A DNA stretch of 64,000 nucleotides from Bacteroidota bacterium. GTDB taxonomy: Bacteria > Bacteroidota > Bacteroidia > Palsa-965. This document shows positions 11,549 through 58,293 of this stretch, in pieces. The DNA lies in contig JABDAO010000004.1 of NCBI GenBank assembly GCA_013289095.1, positions 1,530 to 65,529 on the forward strand. Reading direction: 5' to 3'. The notes beneath the pieces are model-generated. The model did no database searches. It saw only the letters and a list, made by a program, of their open reading frames with translations, and was not told the DNA's origin. The position numbers were made by a program, and so were the translations under genes. Each line of letters begins with the position of its first letter. The first letter of the stretch is position 1.

Positions 11549-11795
11549 TAAACGCATCTTCTTCAAAACAATGAATCGGGCATCTGCTCCCGATGCCAGC
11601 GGTACCTGTCCCGCAAACGCACTCCATGCACGGTAAAATTACTCATCTCAACCATGCTTTGTCTGCATAAGACCGGGCACGGTCTGTCAATATCCCCACT
11701 TCATCGAATACCACAATTTGGTAATAATCTACAAACGCATTGGAGGGTTTTCTTTTTTACTATTGTGTCAGATTAGTCTTTCAGAAATCAGTTTC

Positions 11796-11934
11796 CTATA
11801 AACCAGGATTTTGCATGAGCCGTGTAACAGGCTAATGCAAAATGCGTTAAGCCTTGTGTGTGCCCCGATATCTATCGGGACGGTTATCCCGCTGGGTGCA
11901 TGTGTTGTCAGCCTTTTGAGCAGGGCGGGATAAA
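11796..11934 (-). repeat. core repeat, copy A (shortest copy, lacks the variable insert)
   Basis: The reverse complement reads TTATCCCGCCCTGCTCAAAAGGCTGACAACACATGCACCCAGCGGGATAACCGTCCCGATAGATATCGGGG...GCTTAACGCATTTTGCATTAGCCTGTTACACGGCTCATGCAAAATCCTGGTTTATAG. Confidence 0.8.
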
Positions 11935-14818: not shown

Positions 14819-15040
14819 CCCCACGACTCACCCCCCGGCCCCCTCTCTGCAAGCAGAGAGGGGGAGAAAAAAAGCTGGACAAAACGATGGGTGTTTTGTT
14901 CAAATGAATTCAGTTGAATTCATTTGAATAATTCAACACAAAGGCTCCCCCTCTCTGCTTGCAGAGAGGGGGCCGGCTGCCTTCGCTTGAACGTACTTCC
15001 CTTCGGGCTTCGGCAGCTAAAAGGGGGGTGAGTCGTGGGG
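14819..15040. repeat. ~220-bp palindromic REP-like element
   Basis: The left arm CCCCACGACTCACCCCCCGGCCCCCTCTCTGCAAGCAGAGAGGGGG is mirrored by CCCCCTCTCTGCTTGCAGAGAGGGGGCCGG ... GGGGGGTGAGTCGTGGGG. The centre is the palindrome TTCAAATGAATTCAGTTGAATTCATTTGAA. It sits between convergent 3' ends. Confidence 0.75.
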
Positions 15041-15860: not shown

Positions 15861-16260
15861 CTTTACGGGTTGCTATCTCCCCTTTACGGGTTGCTATCTC
15901 CCATCTACGGGTTGCTATCTCCCCTTTACGTGTTGCTATCACCTAGATACGGGTTGCTATCCCCCATACACGGGTTGCTATCACCCAGATACGGGTTGCT
16001 ATCACCCCTCTACGGGTTGCTATCACCCAGATACGGATAGCTATCACCCATATACAGATTGCTATCACCCAGATACGGATAGCTATCACCCATATACAGA
16101 TTGCTATCACCCAGATACGGGTAGCTATCACCCAGATACAGTTAGCTTTCACCCATATACAGATTGCTATCATCCAGATGCGGATTGCTATCACCCATAT
16201 ACAGATTGCTATCATCCAGATGCGGGTTGCTGTACCTCATGTAGCTATAGAGATAACCCG
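15861..16260. repeat. tandem array 1, 21-nt period, ~19 units (unit TACGGGTTGCTATCACCCAGA)
   Basis: ACGGG recurs at 15865, 15886 and so on, exactly 21 nt apart. Later units alternate in a 42-nt higher-order pattern. The array starts 29 nt upstream of the 15832 start codon. Confidence 0.9.
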
Positions 16261-16460: not shown

Positions 16461-16660
16461 ATTTGGGGTCAACGTCATTTTCCGGGGAGTAACCTGTTTT
16501 ATCACGCATGCTGCATTCGTAGCAGGCTTTCGTGCTCAAAAGGCCAGCAGCTCAACGAACCCGCGGGATAAGCCATCCCGATGACTATCGGGACACACAC
16601 AAAGCTTAACGCACGTTGCATTAGCCTGTTACACGGCTTTTCCAAAATCCCGGTTTATAG
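16461..16660 (+). repeat. module (16461-16498) plus core repeat, copy B (16499-16660)
   Basis: The module ATTTGGGGTCAACGTCATTTTCCGGGGAGTAACCTGTT is shared (inverted) with 35399-35436. The core runs from TTATCACGC to CCCGGTTTATAG and is collinear with copies A, C and E. Confidence 0.8.
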
Positions 16661-16740
16661 CATAGACTTTCGATAAAAAACGTTTGATATTCCTCATTCC
16701 GGTACGAAACGTTCGGAAATCTGTCAGAACAGGAATGGAA

Positions 16741-17340
16741 CCTTAGGGAATGTATCAGGAACATTTAAAGGCATCTTACAACTTTGACAAGGCATCTCGT
16801 AGCCTTTGAAAGACATCTTACAACCTTGCAAAGGCATCACGCAGCCTTGATAAGGAACCAGAGGGAAAGTATCAGGAACCTCGGGGAACATGTCGGGAAG
16901 CTTAGGGAACATGTCGGGAAACTAAGGGAACATGTCGGGAAGCTTAGTAAACATGTCGGGAATCTTGGGGAACATGTCGGGAAGCATAGTAAACATGTCG
17001 GGATCCTCGGGGAACATGTCGGGAAACTAAGGAAACATGTCGGGAAGCTTAGTAAACGTGTCGGGAAGCTTAGCAAACATGTCGGGAAGCTTAGTAAACG
17101 TGTCGGGAAACTTGGGGAACATGTCGGGAAGCTTAGTAAACATGTCGGGAAACTTGGGGAACATGTCGGGAAGCTTAGTAAACATGTCGGGAAGCTTGGG
17201 GAACATGTCGGGAAGCTTAGTAAACGTGTCGGGAAGCTTGGGGAACATGTCGGGAAGCTTAGTAAACATGTCGGGAACCTTGGGGAACATGTCGGGAACC
17301 TTCGGGAATGTGTCGGGAACCCCGGGGGAACGTGTTTCTG
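16741..17340. repeat. tandem array 2, 21-nt period, ~28 units (main unit GGGAACATGTCGGGAAGCTTA; four units of AAGGCATCTTACAACYTTGMN at 16767-16852)
   Basis: TGTCGGG recurs at 16891, 16912 and so on, 21 nt apart. The ORF track shows open frames on both strands across it. Confidence 0.9.
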
Positions 17341-17400
17341 GCTGGACCAACATGCAGCAGTCATTCGATCTCTGCCCCCCAGCTTTTGACATTGACCCAT
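17327..17400 (+). repeat. conserved segment S, copy B
   Basis: GGAACGTGTTTCTGGCTGGACCAACATGCAGCAGTCATTCGATCTCTGCCCCCCAGCTTTTGACATTGACCC is nearly identical to the reverse complement of 34941-35025, apart from a ~9-nt indel. Confidence 0.8.
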
Positions 17401-17586
17401 AATTTGAAGGTGAATTTTGGGGAGAGCAATCTGATTTTCTTGAACGGTTGGGAAAATAAGTGTGTGGGAAAACTGATTTACTGAGGGAAGACGGGTGGGG
17501 GCGGGAGCCAATAACCCCATGATTTAGTACTACCGTGTATCCCTGTTTTTTTGTGACAATCAAAACCCGGGACATCGCGCCCGGCT

Positions 17587-17706
17587 GGAGCGCAACGGTT
17601 GTTTGGATGGTGTTTCTACAGACATTACGCCCCTCCGCGGCGTTAAGATGTAGCCCCAGGGGGCGGAATGTTTGCAGAAAAGAGTAGAATAGAATCGTTG
17701 CGCTCC
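17587..17706. repeat. REP-like long hairpin
   Basis: GGAGCGCAACG (17587-17597) pairs with CGTTGCGCTCC (17696-17706). The inner CTACAGACATTACGCCCC pairs imperfectly with GGGGCGGAATGTTTGCAG. This sequence type commonly yields spurious ORFs in Bacteroidota. Confidence 0.4.
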
Positions 17707-17767
17707 GGCGGAGCGCGAGGTATGGACCTGGGTGGAACAGGAATGCGCCTGTTGTTAATAACACTCC

Positions 17768-18198: not shown

Positions 18199-18292
18199 TT
18201 GAGGGCATCTACTAACCCCGTTTTCTTGCCCTCTCCCTGCCCTCTCCCAAGGAGAGGGCAGGTTTGGATGGGGTTATCAGAGATGCCCTTGA
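18199..18292. repeat. REP hairpin family 1, copy 1
   Basis: TTGAGGGCATCT...CCCTCTCCCAAGGAGAGGGCAGG...AGATGCCCTTGA has nested inverted repeats. It is nearly the same sequence as 44294-44390. Confidence 0.8.
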
Positions 18293-18303
18293 TTTGGTTT
18301 GGA

Positions 18304-31286: not shown

Positions 31287-31535
31287 TAAAAAATGTGTAT
31301 GAATCGTTATACGGTCTGTATACTAATTAGTTTCAGCTGCAAAAGTTGGTAATAACACCTGTCGATTATCAAGGTCTGAGAGATTGATTTCAACAGTGAT
31401 ATGAACACCCAAAACTAAGGAAAAATTCAGTAACTACGAATTACATAAAGGTTCGGAGTTGAGAATCGTTTTCGGGGTCAATAAAGTGGAGGTCAGAGCG
31501 CTTTGAAGACACCTGATTCCTTCTCCGCAACCCCT

Positions 31536-31699
31536 TTATCCCGCATTATTCATTCGGAATCGGCCTTCCCGCTCAAAAGGCTGACAACACATGCACCCAG
31601 CGGGATAACCCGTCTCCCGATGTCTATCGTGACACATACAAGGCTTAACGCACCTTGCATTAGCCTGTAACACGGCAAATGCAAAATTCCGGTTTATAT
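31536..31699 (+). repeat. core repeat, copy C
   Basis: TTATCCCGCATTATTCATTCGGAATCGGCCTTCCCGCTCAAAAGGCTGACAACACATGCACCCAGCGGGATAACCCGTCTCCCGATGTCTATCGTG...TTGCATTAGCCTGTAACACGGCAAATGCAAAATTCCGGTTTATAT. It lies 250 nt upstream of the adhesin start. Confidence 0.8.
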
Positions 31700-31773
31700 C
31701 TTTCACCAATTCCAATTCCTACGGAATAATACGTTTGTATGATAAGCAGAAATTGGTGTAATGGCTTTGCCGG

Positions 31774-33335: not shown

Positions 33336-34880
33336 ATGGCAAACCATAAGATGAGCAAAAACAGGGAAAATCTTTCGGATGAAGACCTTCGAAAAAAGAT
33401 GAACTACGACCAGTTCATTCAGGAATATAAACCCACTCCTTTTTATAAAAGCAAGAAATTCTATTTAACCCTCGTAGCGCTTGGAGCAATCTTTATAGGG
33501 GGCTATATTCTCCTATATGAAGAATCAGGACCCGGTGCATCCGGCAAGCAGCCTTTGGCCGCTTTTATCCACCCTCCGTTACAAGGAGTTGATGTTCTGG
33601 ATTCTATATATGAAATAGACCCTGCCTCCGATACCGTTATCGGTTATTTGAACGGATCCTCTATTCATATTCCGGCCCAGGCATTTCTTGACAAGCAAGG
33701 GAAGACCGTTAAAGGTATTGTACAGCTCCATTACCGGGAGTTTCACGATGCTGTTGATTTTTTTCTGAGCGGAATTCCAATGACCTATGATTCGGCTGGA
33801 AAAATTTTTTGCTTTAAGTCTGCCGGAATGCTCGACATCAGTGCCTTTCAGTACGAAAATCAAGTGTTCACGAATCCAGCAGCTCCTATTACAGTCAAAC
33901 TTAGTTCTGATGTGACTGAAGGCCGGTTCAATATCTATTATCTGGACACAGCACAGAAAAAATGGGAATATATAAATCAGGATTTTGTCAGGCCGTTGAT
34001 GGGTGATGGTCAGCCGGCCGAAGCCTTCAGCCCCTTTAAAACCCCGATTAAAGCTAGTGGTATTCAACCCAAGTTTGCCATTGTATTCGATAAAAAACAA
34101 TTTCCAGAGCTTGCCACCTACGATGGGGTCAGCTTTGAGGTAACAGCCGACGAAAAATATTATGACCCTAAACTTGCGATGAAGGAATGGGATCAAGTGA
34201 AACTTGCTCGGCATCCGGATGGAATTCACTACCTCGTCACGTTTATGAATCCAGGTGAGGAGCATGTTTTTAAGGTGCAACCCGTTTTTAGTGGAGTTGA
34301 CTATACGAGGGCCATGCTGCTCTACGACGGAAAAATGAAAAACTATGAATCCATGCTCGCAAAAAATAAAGAGATAGCCGATCAAAAGAAACGTAAACTT
34401 GATTCGGCCGATGCATCGCGAAACAAGAAGATGCGCTCCGTCAATTCGGGGATGAAGACAGACATGCGGTTCGATGCAGATAAAGAGACAACGAGCAGCT
34501 TAATATTCCGATTATTTACCATCAGCCGGTTTGGAATTTGGAATTCTGATTGCCCCAAATCTCTTCCGCAGGGAAAAATAATCAGCGCTCGTTTTATGGA
34601 TGCGAAAGCGAATCCACTTGAGTTCGACCATGTATATCTAGTGGAGAAAGGTCGAAAACTGATGTATAGCTACTACCCCGATCAATTCGATAAATTTTCA
34701 TACAATCCTGCCTCGACCAACCTGTTGTGGGCGGTTACAAAAGACGGCAAGCTTGCTGTGTTCGGGCCGGAGGAATTTGAAAAGATAAAAGCAGATAAAG
34801 ACAGTAGCAATTTTACGATGAAGCTGCTCGAACGCAAAATCTCCTCTGTGTTTGAGGTAAAGGTCCTGCTTGGGATTTGA
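33336..34880 (+). CDS. hypothetical single-pass membrane protein
   Basis: 514-aa ORF. It has a basic N-terminus, then a TM helix (FYLTLVALGAIFIGGYILLY), then a large extracytoplasmic region. No recognised domain. Confidence 0.7.
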   Translation: MANHKMSKNRENLSDEDLRKKMNYDQFIQEYKPTPFYKSKKFYLTLVALGAIFIGGYILLYEESGPGASGKQPLAAFIHPPLQGVDVLDSIYEIDPASDTVIGYLNGSSIHIPAQAFLDKQGKTVKGIVQLHYREFHDAVDFFLSGIPMTYDSAGKIFCFKSAGMLDISAFQYENQVFTNPAAPITVKLSSDVTEGRFNIYYLDTAQKKWEYINQDFVRPLMGDGQPAEAFSPFKTPIKASGIQPKFAIVFDKKQFPELATYDGVSFEVTADEKYYDPKLAMKEWDQVKLARHPDGIHYLVTFMNPGEEHVFKVQPVFSGVDYTRAMLLYDGKMKNYESMLAKNKEIADQKKRKLDSADASRNKKMRSVNSGMKTDMRFDADKETTSSLIFRLFTISRFGIWNSDCPKSLPQGKIISARFMDAKANPLEFDHVYLVEKGRKLMYSYYPDQFDKFSYNPASTNLLWAVTKDGKLAVFGPEEFEKIKADKDSSNFTMKLLERKISSVFEVKVLLGI

Positions 34881-34940
34881 CCTTCAACCCCCAGAATCTG
34901 TGTTTGCTTTTGGCGGTTTGGGTGCAATGAACGCCGAAAA

Positions 34941-35025
34941 ACGGGTCAATGCCAAAAAGCTGGGGGGCAGAGATCGAATGACTGCTGCCTGTTGGTCCAG
35001 CCAGTGGATGCAGAGACACGTTTCC
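34941..35025 (-). repeat. conserved segment S, copy D
   Basis: The reverse complement reads GGAAACGTGTCTCTGCATCCACTGGCTGGACCAACAGGCAGCAGTCATTCGATCTCTGCCCCCCAGCTTTTTGGCATTGACCCGT. It matches 17327-17400. Confidence 0.8.
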
Positions 35026-35057
35026 GTTTTTCAGTTTGTCTTCTGAAGGGGTGATTC

Positions 35058-35180
35058 ACTCTTTATACAGCGCTAAACAGTCTTTATCACATTCTATACA
35101 CACTTTATCACATTCTATTCAGTCTTTATACCAAGCATTACAGTTTCCAGACACTTCTATACACCCTTTATCGGCTGCAG
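35058..35180. repeat. tandem array D, 21-nt period, ~6 units (unit CTTTATCACATTCTATACACA)
   Basis: CTTTAT recurs at 35061, 35082, 35103 and 35124 (21-nt spacing). The unit sequence is unrelated to arrays 1 and 2. Confidence 0.75.
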
Positions 35181-35253
35181 GAGCGCTTTCTTCCATTTGA
35201 AGGCTCATCCCGGGAGCCATCGGGTCTTTAAAATGACTAAGAAAGGGTCTAAA

Positions 35254-35436
35254 CCCGCATTATGCATTAGAAGCAGGCATTCGCGCTCAAAAGGCCAGCA
35301 GCACGACGAACCCGCGGGATGGGTTATCCCGCTGCTCCTGATATCTGGCGGCCCTTTCAGAGCATTAGCCATCTTTAACTGAAAAATGCGGGATAAAACA
35401 GGTTACTCCCCTGAAAAGGATTTTGACCCGTCAAAT
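35254..35436 (+). repeat. core repeat copy D (variant, 35254-35385) plus inverted module (35388-35436)
   Basis: CCCGCATTATGCATTAGAAGCAGGCATTCGCGCTCAAAAGGCCAGCAGCACGACGAACCCGCGGGAT is collinear with copy B. The right end GCGGGATAAAACAGGTTACTCCCCTGAAAAGGATTTTGACCCGTCAAAT is the inverse of the module at 16461-16507. Confidence 0.75.
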
Positions 35437-35664
35437 CGGTTCTTAAAATATAATTTCTTTAATGAATATTAGTTGTCAATAACCGACAGTGGAGATCCTG
35501 GTTGTTAAGTCGGTCCAGATATAGGTGGATGGAAGGTAAACGTATATGGCGGGTGATCGAAAGACAGGAAGAAGAAAACAGCCATTCCGTCTAGTTGAAT
35601 GATAATTATTCCGGCATCAAAACGAGTGAGTGGTCAACCGTGTTAATCACGATACGCCCGAGGC

Positions 35665-36492
35665 CTAAAATATTTTCATCTGTATGCCATTCTGCCGTTT
35701 TAATTCTGTTTTGATTTCAGCAATTTCCATCCTCAGCTCTTTGAGCGTATTGCTTATTCTGTCCTTGCTGATATTGGGTTCGGGAAGCTCCCGGCTCATA
35801 TACGTATTAAATTTCCAGACTTCCAGAATTTCTGAAAGATCAATCTCATAGGGCTGATATTCGGGATTCGTGCTCACAAGCATAAGCGATTTACGCTCCC
35901 CGATCTTGTTATAAACGCTTTTGAAAACAATCCCCTCGTCCTTCGTCACAATGATGTAGGGATAGCCATCCTTGATATGGTTCCAGTTTTCGACATATTC
36001 GGCCACTACCCACGATCCATGTGGCACAGGGGGCATGCTATCGCCGCTGATTTCGAATGAGCGGTATTTACGATTCCTGTCCAGAAAGGGCAGGCTGAAC
36101 GCCTGCAACACTTTGATGTAAGACGGATCAGCAAACCCTGCGGTATAACCGGCTTTTGCTTTGATGGGAACAAGTTCAATATTCTCTTCATTGTCCTGGT
36201 TTACAGTGGTTGCCAGGACACGGATGCGGTTGCCAGTAATATCAATATCATGACCACGCTCTATCTCACTAAGCAGGCTTTCTGAAATCTTCCCCAGTTC
36301 CACCCGGATCAGTTTGTCGAGGGTGATCTTGAAATATTCTGCAAACCGGATCAACGTATCCATGCTGGGCTCGGTAGACCCATTCTCATAACTGCAAAGG
36401 GTGGTTCGCTTTATGCCAAGGGTGGTTGCCACATCATCCTGAGATCGTTTACGGCGTTTGCGAAGTAGGCGGATATTGTCTGAAAAGTACAT
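35665..36492 (-). CDS. XRE-family HTH regulator fused to an S24 (LexA/CI-like) peptidase domain
   Basis: 275-aa ORF. The N-terminal HTH is RSQDDVATTLGIKRTTLCSYENGSTEPSMDTLIRFAEYF. The S24 core is FEISGDSMPP...YPYIIVTKDEGIVFKSV. There is a ~40-aa helical C-terminal tail. Confidence 0.85.
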   Translation of the reverse strand: MYFSDNIRLLRKRRKRSQDDVATTLGIKRTTLCSYENGSTEPSMDTLIRFAEYFKITLDKLIRVELGKISESLLSEIERGHDIDITGNRIRVLATTVNQDNEENIELVPIKAKAGYTAGFADPSYIKVLQAFSLPFLDRNRKYRSFEISGDSMPPVPHGSWVVAEYVENWNHIKDGYPYIIVTKDEGIVFKSVYNKIGERKSLMLVSTNPEYQPYEIDLSEILEVWKFNTYMSRELPEPNISKDRISNTLKELRMEIAEIKTELKRQNGIQMKIF

Positions 36493-44293: not shown

Positions 44294-44390
44294 TTGAGGG
44301 CATCTCTAATAAACCCGTTTTCTTGACCTCTCCCTGCCCCTCTCCCAAGGAGAGAGCATGTTTGGATGGGGTTATTAGAGATGCCCTTGA
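44294..44390. repeat. REP hairpin family 1, copy 2
   Basis: TTGAGGGCATCTCTAATAAACCCGTTTTCTTGACCTCTCCCTGCCCCTCTCCCAAGGAGAGAGCATGTTTGGATGGGGTTATTAGAGATGCCCTTGA. It begins 10 nt upstream of the 44283 start codon. Confidence 0.8.
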
Positions 44391-44598
44391 GTCTGTTCTT
44401 TAATAACTCTGTTTTGGGGTTGTTTATTGTGAGGCCTCACAAAAAAGCGGAAAGATTCAGCGATTTGAACGGTTTTTTTACAAAACAATGATAGTGACTC
44501 GTCCCCGATCGGATAAGTTTCAGGCATCTAATCGATACCAACCCGGTCAGAAATTTATACAGTTTACTACCTTAGCAGCTAATTAATACCTACAGCCC

Positions 44599-45141: not shown

Positions 45142-45253
45142 GGTAGGTTGGTTGAACCCTGCATAATGGTTGTTATACAATTGTATGAACTCCATCCTGC
45201 TCAATCCGGGTAAGATGTTGGTGTTTCCCTATCAGACGGTGGCTGATTGCAAG

Positions 45254-45600
45254 CCAGAAACACCCATTCCGGATCCGGATAGAGGTGATAGAAACCCGGA
45301 AATACCCTTTCCTGACTCGGATGTGAGTGATAGCAACCCGGAAACACCTTTTCCTGACTCGGATGTGAGTGATAGCAACCCGGAAACACCTTTTCCTGAC
45401 TCGGATGTGAGTGATAGCAACCCGGAAATACCCTTTCCGGACTCGGATGTGAGTGATAGCAACCCGGAAACACCTTTTCCTGACTCGGATGTGAGTGATA
45501 GCAACCCGGAAACACCCCTTCCGGATCCGGATGTAGGTAATAGCAACCCGGAAACACCTTTCCCGGATCCGGATATGGCTGATAGCAATCCGGAAATACC
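45254..45600. repeat. tandem array 3, 42-nt (2 x 21) period, ~8 units
   Basis: The unit CGGATGTGAGTGATAGCAACCCGGAAACACCTTTTCCTGACT recurs at 45318, 45360 and so on. It contains GTGATAGCAACCCG, the inverse of the array 1 core CGGGTTGCTATCAC. Confidence 0.9.
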
Positions 45601-57991: not shown

Positions 57992-58013
57992 CTGAATCGG
58001 TCATGAACCAATA

Positions 58014-58050
58014 AAAGAAAGTCCCAATCAGTATTGGGACTTTCTTTTTG
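58014..58050 (+). terminator. rho-independent terminator of the act-cta operon
   Basis: AAAGAAAGTCCCAAT (58014-28) pairs perfectly with ATTGGGACTTTCTTT (58033-47). The loop is CAGT, followed by TTG. Confidence 0.85.
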
Positions 58051-58080
58051 CCGGAATCTGTCTTTCAGGTGCTGGGCTGA

Positions 58081-58252
58081 CCTATAATCCGGGATTTTGC
58101 ATTAGCCGTTCAACAGGCTAATGCAACGTGCGTTAGGCCTGTGAGGGTCCCGATGGCTCAGATAGACATCGGGAGACGGTTGTCACGCGGGCCAGCAGGA
58201 CTGATGGCTTTTTGAGCGTAAAGACGTGTTTCCGATGCATGAAGCGGGATAA
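58081..58252 (-). repeat. core repeat, copy E
   Basis: The reverse complement reads TTATCCCGCTTCATGCATCGGAAACACGTCTTTACGCTCAAAAAGCC...CCCGATGTCTATCTGAGCCATCGGG...TTGCATTAGCCTGTTGAACGGCTAATGCAAAATCCCGGATTATAGG. It ends ~40 nt upstream of the 58294 start. Confidence 0.8.
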
Positions 58253-58293
58253 TTACTGCCGGGAGAAAATTACCTTTACCGGAAGAATCACAC

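Follow-up and report, generated by a model that had tools for sequence, protein, structure and literature searches.

Two opposed cores at locus D of an interspersed intergenic repeat family in a Bacteroidota bacterium

Introduction

Locus D of a Bacteroidota bacterium, a non-coding region between two genes, raises the question of whether a short DNA segment was turned around there and, if so, whether it acts as a switch. The region contains one of five loci (A, B, C, D and E, all intergenic) of a repeat family that is known from the 64-kb window, i.e., the whole 64,000-nt stretch of DNA analyzed in this study. An earlier note on this DNA described loci B and D as collinear except for a single core that is flipped in D between the arms of an 8-bp inverted repeat. 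Two explanations were offered: site-specific inversion of a segment of approximately 130 nt, or independent insertion of a MITE-like core into the same target in either orientation. If the first of these were true, an uncultured lineage of Bacteroidia would have yielded a new device for phase variation.

In this study, the observation was partly confirmed and its interpretation partly supported, with insertion being the closer of the two explanations. The apparent flip is best seen as mistaken orthology: the counterpart of the B core is a second, divergent core, D2, and not the B-like core, D1. The account we favor, to which we give about an even chance, treats D not as a switch but as a fixed mosaic built from an interspersed intergenic repeat specific to this lineage, with D1 inserted into it in reverse.

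Results and Discussion

The canonical element and its five loci

Canonical elements, found at A, B, C and E, are approximately 190 nt long (Table 1). In 5' to 3' order, they consist of a leader (...TTTTCCGGGGAGTAACCTGTTT), a 73-nt core, a 5-nt linker, hairpin 2 (TCCCGAT..ATCGGGA), the sequence GGCTTAACGCA and hairpin 1 (TTGCATTAGCC/GGCTAATGCAA), and they end in ...CCCGGTTTATAG. The core includes GCTCAAAAGGC and is bounded by a 9-bp inverted repeat, TTATCCCGC/GCGGGATAA; the linker is AACCC in C and AAGCC in B. As the earlier note had seen, the bounding motif recurs in the other copies: TTATCCCGC occurs 8 times in the window, compared with 0.5 expected occurrences, and all of these are within the five loci. 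The orientation of the core relative to the hairpin-1 module is identical in the four canonical copies.

The scaffold and the core of these elements differ in conservation. Every pair of modules from A, B, C and E shows a similar identity (84-87%), and the scaffold is approximately 85% identical between any two copies, whereas cores are 60-100% identical across the family. For core 3' halves, identity is 100% between A and C, 89% between B and D1, and 60-71% for E. The copies are also mosaic, in that the 5' half of the core is missing from A, D has two opposed cores but no module, and B and D have additional tandem arrays and a further repeat, designated S.

Table 1. Coordinates of repeat family members, of the parts of locus D and of tandem arrays in the window
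Feature	Position	Strand	Remarks
Locus A element	11793-11932	-	core 5' half apparently deleted between CCCGC repeats
Locus B canonical element	about 16461-16664	+	leader 16461-16498, core 16499-16571, hairpin 2 16576-16593, hairpin-1 module 16602-16660
Locus C canonical element	31514-31702	+	canonical copy
Locus D family matches	35246-35429	both strands	two cores, without hairpin-1 module
Locus E canonical element	58078-58273	-	canonical copy
D1 core copy	35251-35322	+	B-like; inverted relative to leader and S
D2 core copy	35324-35396	-	divergent; collinear with leader
Left arm of 8-bp inverted repeat (CCCGCATT)	35254-35261	+	conserved 5' end of D1
Right arm of 8-bp inverted repeat (AATGCGGG on +)	35385-35392	-	conserved 5' end of D2
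D leader (ATTTGACGGGTCAAAATCCTTTTCAGGGGAGTAACCTGTTT)	35397-35436	-	B-type 5' flank of element
Candidate 90-nt insert	35225-35314	+	26 extra nt plus D1 minus its 3' repeat
Hairpin 2, distal part, of resident D element (ATGGCTCCCGGGATGAGCC on minus)	35202-35224	-	parted from 5' arm 35315-35320 by candidate insert
D tandem array	35060-35180	-	short, degenerate, about 5 units, period 21 nt; consensus CTTTATCACATTCTATACACA on +; 35082-35129 detected, rest read off the sequence
S repeat at D	34943-35004	-	hairpin then U run on minus strand
Whole non-coding D region (784 nt)	34881-35664	.	between two convergent genes
Non-coding tandem arrays, strict 21-nt period	15864-16231, 16767-16855, 16884-17319, 35060-35180		unit sequences unrelated
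Tandem array, 42-nt period	45244-45600		has TGATAGCAACCCG, reverse-complementary to a segment of the 15864-16231 unit

Searches for a known RNA in these sequences were negative. Rfam had no match anywhere in the window at gathering thresholds, and matches that appeared at C, D and B with lax thresholds were at chance level (ToxI, 13.8 bits; DUF2693 RNA, 15.5 bits, with the cut-off at 81.3; MIR5225). A tRNA/tmRNA search found none. RNAalifold, applied to four sequences, gave no covariation support (covariation term +0.81; 1/34 pairs compensatory). In A, B, C and E, the strand running from module to core is the sense strand of the neighboring gene or genes, and it folds 1-17 kcal/mol better than its complement in these four copies. 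This bias may mean transcription through the elements or mere base composition, and we did not rely on it. The minus-strand fold of D contains 8 G-U pairs.

Locus D contains two cores on opposite strands

The inversion of the marker relative to the leader and S was confirmed. An exact 18-mer, GCTCAAAAGGCCAGCAGC, is present on the plus strand in both loci, at 16534-16551 in B and at 35285-35302 in D. In BLAST comparisons of D with B, the S repeat (34943-35004 vs 17398-17338, 95% identity) and a stretch of leader and core (35315-35429 vs 16580-16466, 72%) align on the minus strand, and the core (35247-35334 vs 16496-16583, 81%) aligns on the plus strand. The best match to the core therefore runs opposite to the leader and S. 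The D leader is of the B type (local alignment score 49, z 17; 86% identity over 51 nt).

The idea of a single flipped core has to be given up, as D holds two. A search with nhmmer, using a model of the four canonical copies, yielded two matches in D: one on the plus strand (35246-35365, 54.1 bits) and one on the minus strand (35419-35315, 41.8 bits, model positions 7-111). The plus-strand core, D1, contains the marker and has degenerate ends (TAAACCCGC ... GCGGGATGG); it is 82% identical to the B core. The ends of the minus-strand core, D2, form the perfect 9-bp pair TTATCCCGC / GCGGGATAA with a spacing of 64 nt, which B, C and E share.

The identity of D2 with B and C is 63-65%, compared with 48 +/- 2.8% for shuffled sequences. 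Even without its terminal repeats, the D2 interior is core-like, and this holds for the minus strand only (comparison with B, C and D1, z 3.6-3.8; reverse-complement control, z 0-1.6). D2 is followed on that strand by AACCC, the canonical form of the linker, which reads GGGTT on the other strand.

D1 and D2 are both complete and repeat-bounded, and they lie tail to tail with one base between them. This arrangement accounts for the 8-bp inverted repeat and for an imperfect palindrome of 140 nt at D. The arms of the 8-bp repeat are present as the earlier note had described them, except that the right arm ends at 35392 and not at 35393. Rather than bounding one flipped piece, each arm is simply the 5' end, a conserved part, of one of the cores.

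Outside the cores, too, D is not fully collinear with B. D has no hairpin-1 module, and the arrays of the two loci are alike in their 21-nt period alone, with BLAST finding two chance-level matches of 16-18 nt (E about 1). Similarity was not significant between the D1 5' flank and any leader or the flank of A, or between the D tail and the B 3' flank, and the hairpin-2 remnant of D, taken alone, is weakly significant.

Possible histories: insertion of a reversed core or a past inversion

In the history that we favor, the resident D unit would have consisted, on the minus strand, of the leader, D2, the AACCC linker and hairpin 2, with D2 as the positional counterpart of the B core. A B-subtype core, D1, together with 26 nt and without its own 3' repeat, would then have entered the 5' arm of hairpin 2 in reverse, with duplication of CCCG. 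The candidate insert is indeed flanked by a direct repeat of 4 bp (CGGG on the plus strand, CCCG on the minus strand), at 35221-35224 and 35315-35318.

When 35221-35314 (the candidate insert plus one copy of the 4-bp repeat) was deleted in silico, the minus-strand match extended to model positions 8-124 and its score rose from 41.8 to 51.8 bits. The same deletion joins ...GCGGGATAACCCATCCCG to ATGGCTCCCGGGAT... and restores hairpin 2, with a junction that is identical to B at 27/31 positions. Two features of D2 as found were also counted for insertion, i.e., its perfect 9/9 repeat pair and the canonical linker that follows it; before any inversion, GGGTT would adjoin D1.

This restored junction, together with a scaffold that is approximately 85% alike and cores that range from 60 to 100%, argues that D2 is the counterpart of the B core and that D1 is most likely an additional copy put in backwards. 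D2 is unlike the B core because cores are the hypervariable part of an element whose scaffold stays approximately 85% alike. Given this variability, a B-like scaffold around a core that is not B-like is normal in the family.

Independent insertion in reverse, as the earlier note had proposed it, thus comes close to the junction evidence. On this reading, its notion of the same target needs correction, since D keeps its own collinear core, D2, and D1 is an extra unit within hairpin 2. The boundaries of the insert are ambiguous because the direct repeat is 4 bp long and the junction is palindromic (CCCGCGGG). We infer the order of these events, and likewise that the 4-bp duplication is a target-site footprint and that some agent moved the core; none of the 43 large ORFs scanned in the window encodes such an agent.

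Other points count against insertion: the direct repeat is short, the hairpin-2 remnant by itself is weakly significant, the evidence comes from five loci of one 64-kb window, and when the inversion between the 8-bp repeats is undone, D becomes a single, nearly full-length family match. The last of these points to the main rival, in which D once consisted of the leader, D1 in forward and D2 in reverse orientation, and its 123-nt interior was flipped across the CCCGCATT ends and then fixed. The agent would have been a single recombination or a replication template switch, and the event neither reversible nor regulated. We regard this history as unlikely, yet it is a serious rival because the family match scores 77 bits once the inversion is undone in silico, compared with 54 bits as found, and because such an event explains a uniform likeness to B.

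Specifically, reverse-complementing 35262-35384 replaces the two matches (54.1 and 41.8 bits) with one that covers model positions 8-190 at 77.0 bits. The Smith-Waterman score against B rises from 78 to 147, and the alignment is contiguous, with approximately 88% identity through leader and core. The switch in B-likeness falls exactly within CGCAT, and the leader (86-91%), D1 (82-89%), the hairpin-2 junction (87%) and S (95%) would then all be similarly B-like.

However, this history requires two events, as D2 has to arrive reversed before the inversion takes place. The ancestral resident core would have been followed by GGGTT, a non-canonical linker, and must have lost the linker and hairpin arm that belonged to it. 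The 9/9 repeat pair and the canonical linker of D2 become coincidences. In addition, 8 bp is very short for homologous recombination, and the mismatch between scaffold and core identity is general in the family, so that an inversion is not required to explain it.

A palindrome could also arise by inverted duplication, in which a replication strand switch at a CGGGAT-N5-ATCCCG hairpin copied the core back and the arms diverged later. The center of the D palindrome falls exactly on such a hairpin, and the minus-strand RNA fold has z = -4.0. Nevertheless, with D arms 63-65% alike and D1 82% identical to B, the duplication would be older than the split between B and D1, although no palindrome is present in B. 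At -48/-63 kcal/mol, the D1/D2 hairpin is no more stable than random pairings of family cores, i.e., artificial pairs of equally diverged cores (-37 to -63 kcal/mol), whereas a true inverted duplicate would have approximately -150 kcal/mol. We therefore consider inverted duplication very improbable.

Locus D as a candidate switch

An active inverton at D would involve a site-specific recombinase, encoded elsewhere, that recognizes the TTATCCCGC(ATT) ends and flips the segment reversibly, causing phase variation. D resembles the invertible promoters of Bacteroidota, fimS and hin in that it is a short segment between inverted repeats, and the phylum is the right one. In Bacteroides, global invertases work on distant sites, which would allow for such an enzyme at D. 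Inverted repeats (CCCGCATT, 8 bp and perfect, the conserved ends of the two repeat copies) are present at both ends of the segment, the motif TTATCCCGC recurs in these loci only, and a size of approximately 130 nt fits known invertons, which are mostly under 300 nt (PMC11602134).

Other observations make a working switch at D quite improbable. A Pfam scan covered 43 large ORFs of the approximately 45 likely genes in the window, with a 2851-aa repeat-rich gene left out, and detected no recombinase, resolvase or transposase domain among them and thus no serine or tyrosine invertase. Both neighboring genes face D with their 3' ends; thus, there is no downstream gene for a flipped promoter to drive. 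No promoter-like site was found in the segment (35254-35392) by a sigma-70 scan, which does not cover Bacteroidota-type promoters, and its sole match falls outside the segment.

The perfect repeat is just 8 bp long, and all four canonical cores share one orientation relative to the module. Because the segment is nearly palindromic, a flip would alter little. Moreover, a contig from the Logan assemblies crosses the right-hand repeat and continues 94 nt into the segment, unbranched and in the orientation of the window. In contrast to known invertons, D has no arrangement of promoter and target gene, and its segment is a palindrome of two repeat copies. The absence of a recombinase among the scanned ORFs, the convergent flanks and the independent assembly thus leave the inverton explanation of the earlier note with no positive support.

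Assembly, genomic context and distribution

An opposed pair of cores could be produced by a metagenome contig that was mis-joined within a repeat and so given a false orientation. Logan contigs of SRR8422484 do break at family repeats (31600, 34984 and 35291), and 34985-35290 is outside all independent contigs that were retrieved. Against this, one Logan contig corresponds to 39254-35291 with 100% identity and spans the leader, D2, the center and the first 32 nt of the inverted D1. Since this stretch already holds the orientation conflict, a simple mis-join is ruled out as its source. The order of the flanking genes is also the same in all relatives, and an assembly artefact is barely conceivable as the cause.

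Exact-protein look-ups returned solely Logan contigs that end at repeats. The contig ends at 31600, 34984 and 35291 (L015, L001; SRR8422484) fall exactly in the C core, in S and in the D1 core, respectively, and E is run through. The break at 35291 hints at a further D1-like copy elsewhere in the genome.

The window represents housekeeping chromosome, with genes for a TonB receptor, DprA, alternative complex III, cytochrome oxidase and RuvB, the 2851-aa repeat-rich gene (whose counterpart in relatives is annotated as SprB) and then SprF. D is flanked by convergent genes, 33351-34880 on the plus strand and an HTH-S24 regulator, 35665-36492, on the minus strand. In four relatives this gene pair is 21-92 nt apart (the regulator is 89% identical in one, and those of the others belong to the same 90%-identity cluster), and their orthologous loci contain no family member, array or S. 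The absence of the D region from these relatives indicates that the 784-nt region is lineage specific.

Other sites gave a similar picture. At the B site, the distance after the rhodanese gene is 46 nt in a relative and approximately 1.9 kb in the window. At the E site, the distance from the cytochrome oxidase subunit I gene to the next gene is approximately 6 nt in a relative (L052 1015-1022) and 302 nt here. At C, a promoter-proximal stretch of the intergenic region aligns with a relative, and the element is not part of it. Thus, the D, B and E regions are missing in relatives that also lack the whole family. Locus E (57992-58293) contains a strong terminator-like hairpin (58014-58050) in addition to element E, both inserted between the same two genes; the downstream gene must therefore rely on read-through or on a promoter in or beside E.

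Pattern searches extended beyond the relatives. The core pattern had two matches in 185,579 species genomes, both due to chance, and 32 in JGI metagenomes, none of which was confirmed by nhmmer. The module pattern had 0 matches in JGI metagenomes, viral contigs had 0 matches to either pattern, and the B element matched nothing among plasmids and phages. Overall, the family behaves as a young, proliferating, lineage-restricted intergenic repeat.

Relation to known repeat systems

We filed the D family under the general class of interspersed mosaic intergenic repeats, as a previously undescribed family: its copies are non-coding and intergenic, and they share modules in variable combinations and orientations. 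One close comparison is with the BIMEs of Enterobacteria. These are clusters of REP units in alternating orientation, often tail to tail, with many copies per genome; their non-coding modules are combined differently from locus to locus and are located between genes, including at convergent gene ends.

The D family is likewise short, intergenic and modular, and it occurs in both orientations and at convergent gene ends. It has no sequence relation to BIMEs, however, and its unit is larger (a 73-nt core in an element of approximately 190 nt). In addition, it combines a conserved scaffold with a variable core, two of its loci add 21-nt arrays and a terminator-like S repeat, and it has no known associated transposase.

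REPINs, which are mobilized by RAYT transposases, are a second system of interest. They are REP doublets inverted into a long hairpin, with two orientation classes, and their arms belong to the same group, are 94-98% conserved and form near-perfect hairpins (PMC3337134, which also provides background on REP sequences). The two inverted copies at D similarly form a long hairpin. However, identity between its arms is 63-65%, and its stability does not exceed that of random pairings (-48/-63 kcal/mol, compared with approximately -150 kcal/mol for self doublets), so that D is not a near-perfect hairpin of same-group repeats. No single-copy RAYT (Y1 transposase) was found among the window ORFs that were scanned.

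BOX elements of Streptococcus pneumoniae and MITE-like repeats (Correia, ERIC, RUP) are modular, lineage-specific sequences of 100-200 nt with stem-loops and with empty sites in relatives. They insert between or inside transcription units. The D family shares with them its nature as a modular, lineage-specific intergenic insertion with stem-loops, but it has no sequence similarity to them, and its target duplication is an ambiguous 4 bp, CCCG in a palindromic context, at one junction. The sites of D, B and E are empty in relatives without the family. For B, C and E, similarity between the first 34 nt and the reverse complement of the last 34 nt was at shuffle level. With no significant terminal inverted repeats in the canonical element, the term MITE-like, used in the earlier note, is loosely right at most.

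The evidence points to an undescribed yet ordinary interspersed mosaic repeat of modest practical importance. Such repeats break short-read assemblies, as illustrated by the three Logan contig ends exactly on family repeats, and they can mislead orthology calls, as when a B-like marker is mistaken for the counterpart of the B core. As to a present function, one speculative possibility is that D contributes a hairpin to both convergent transcripts, in their 3' ends.

A conserved scaffold around a hypervariable, repeat-bounded core is mildly interesting and hints at cassette-like exchange. The 3' halves of the A and C cores (11882-11924 and 31568-31610) are 98-100% identical, and the adjacent modules are just 85-86% identical, which suggests a recent exchange or copying of cores that was independent of the scaffold. 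Cores bounded by TTATCCCGC/GCGGGATAA may represent non-coding cassettes that are inserted, exchanged and sometimes inverted in the scaffold by a dedicated recombinase or transposase. This is improbable, but it would account for identical A and C cores in differently diverged scaffolds, for hypervariable cores and for the D doublet.

Other repeats in the window

The two copies of S, 17338-17398 and 34943-35004, are in inverted orientation and 95% identical (98% over 50 nt). For each, a hairpin with a U run after it is predicted, on the plus strand in B and on the minus strand in D (z about -1.7), and by this predicted fold S looks like a terminator. In the improbable cassette reading, a long non-coding transcript might also proceed, at B and D, from the leader through a 21-nt array to the S terminator, with the scaffold as its 5' domain. 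Between the S copies lies a 17.5-kb block (rhodanese ... SprF, the 2851-aa SprB-like gene and a 509-aa gene). A contig of a relative has the same gene order for this block with respect to the HTH-S24 side.

Arrays with a 21-nt period flank the B and D elements, and none of the tandem arrays is present in relatives. ORFs that extend across arrays look like repeat artefacts; one of them, 17027-17764, was rejected as a gene, as it would encode an implausible protein ending in array-derived heptads.

Two further intergenic features were observed. Between two convergent genes, 14820-15040 contains nested inverted repeats: a perfect 32-nt pair (14835-14866 / 14945-14976, 78 nt apart), each arm of which is palindromic (CCCCCTCTCTGC..GCAGAGAGGGGG), and outer arms CCCACGACTCACCCCCC / GGGGGGTGAGTCGTGGG. 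By repeat length, this region is a better inverton candidate than D. A second intergenic repeat, with the hairpin CCCTCTCCCAAGGAGAGGG, occurs in direct orientation at 18208-18299 and 44305-44397, and its copies are approximately 90% identical. One copy adjoins the rhodanese gene on the B side, and the other is located upstream of the gene that comes before the 42-nt array.
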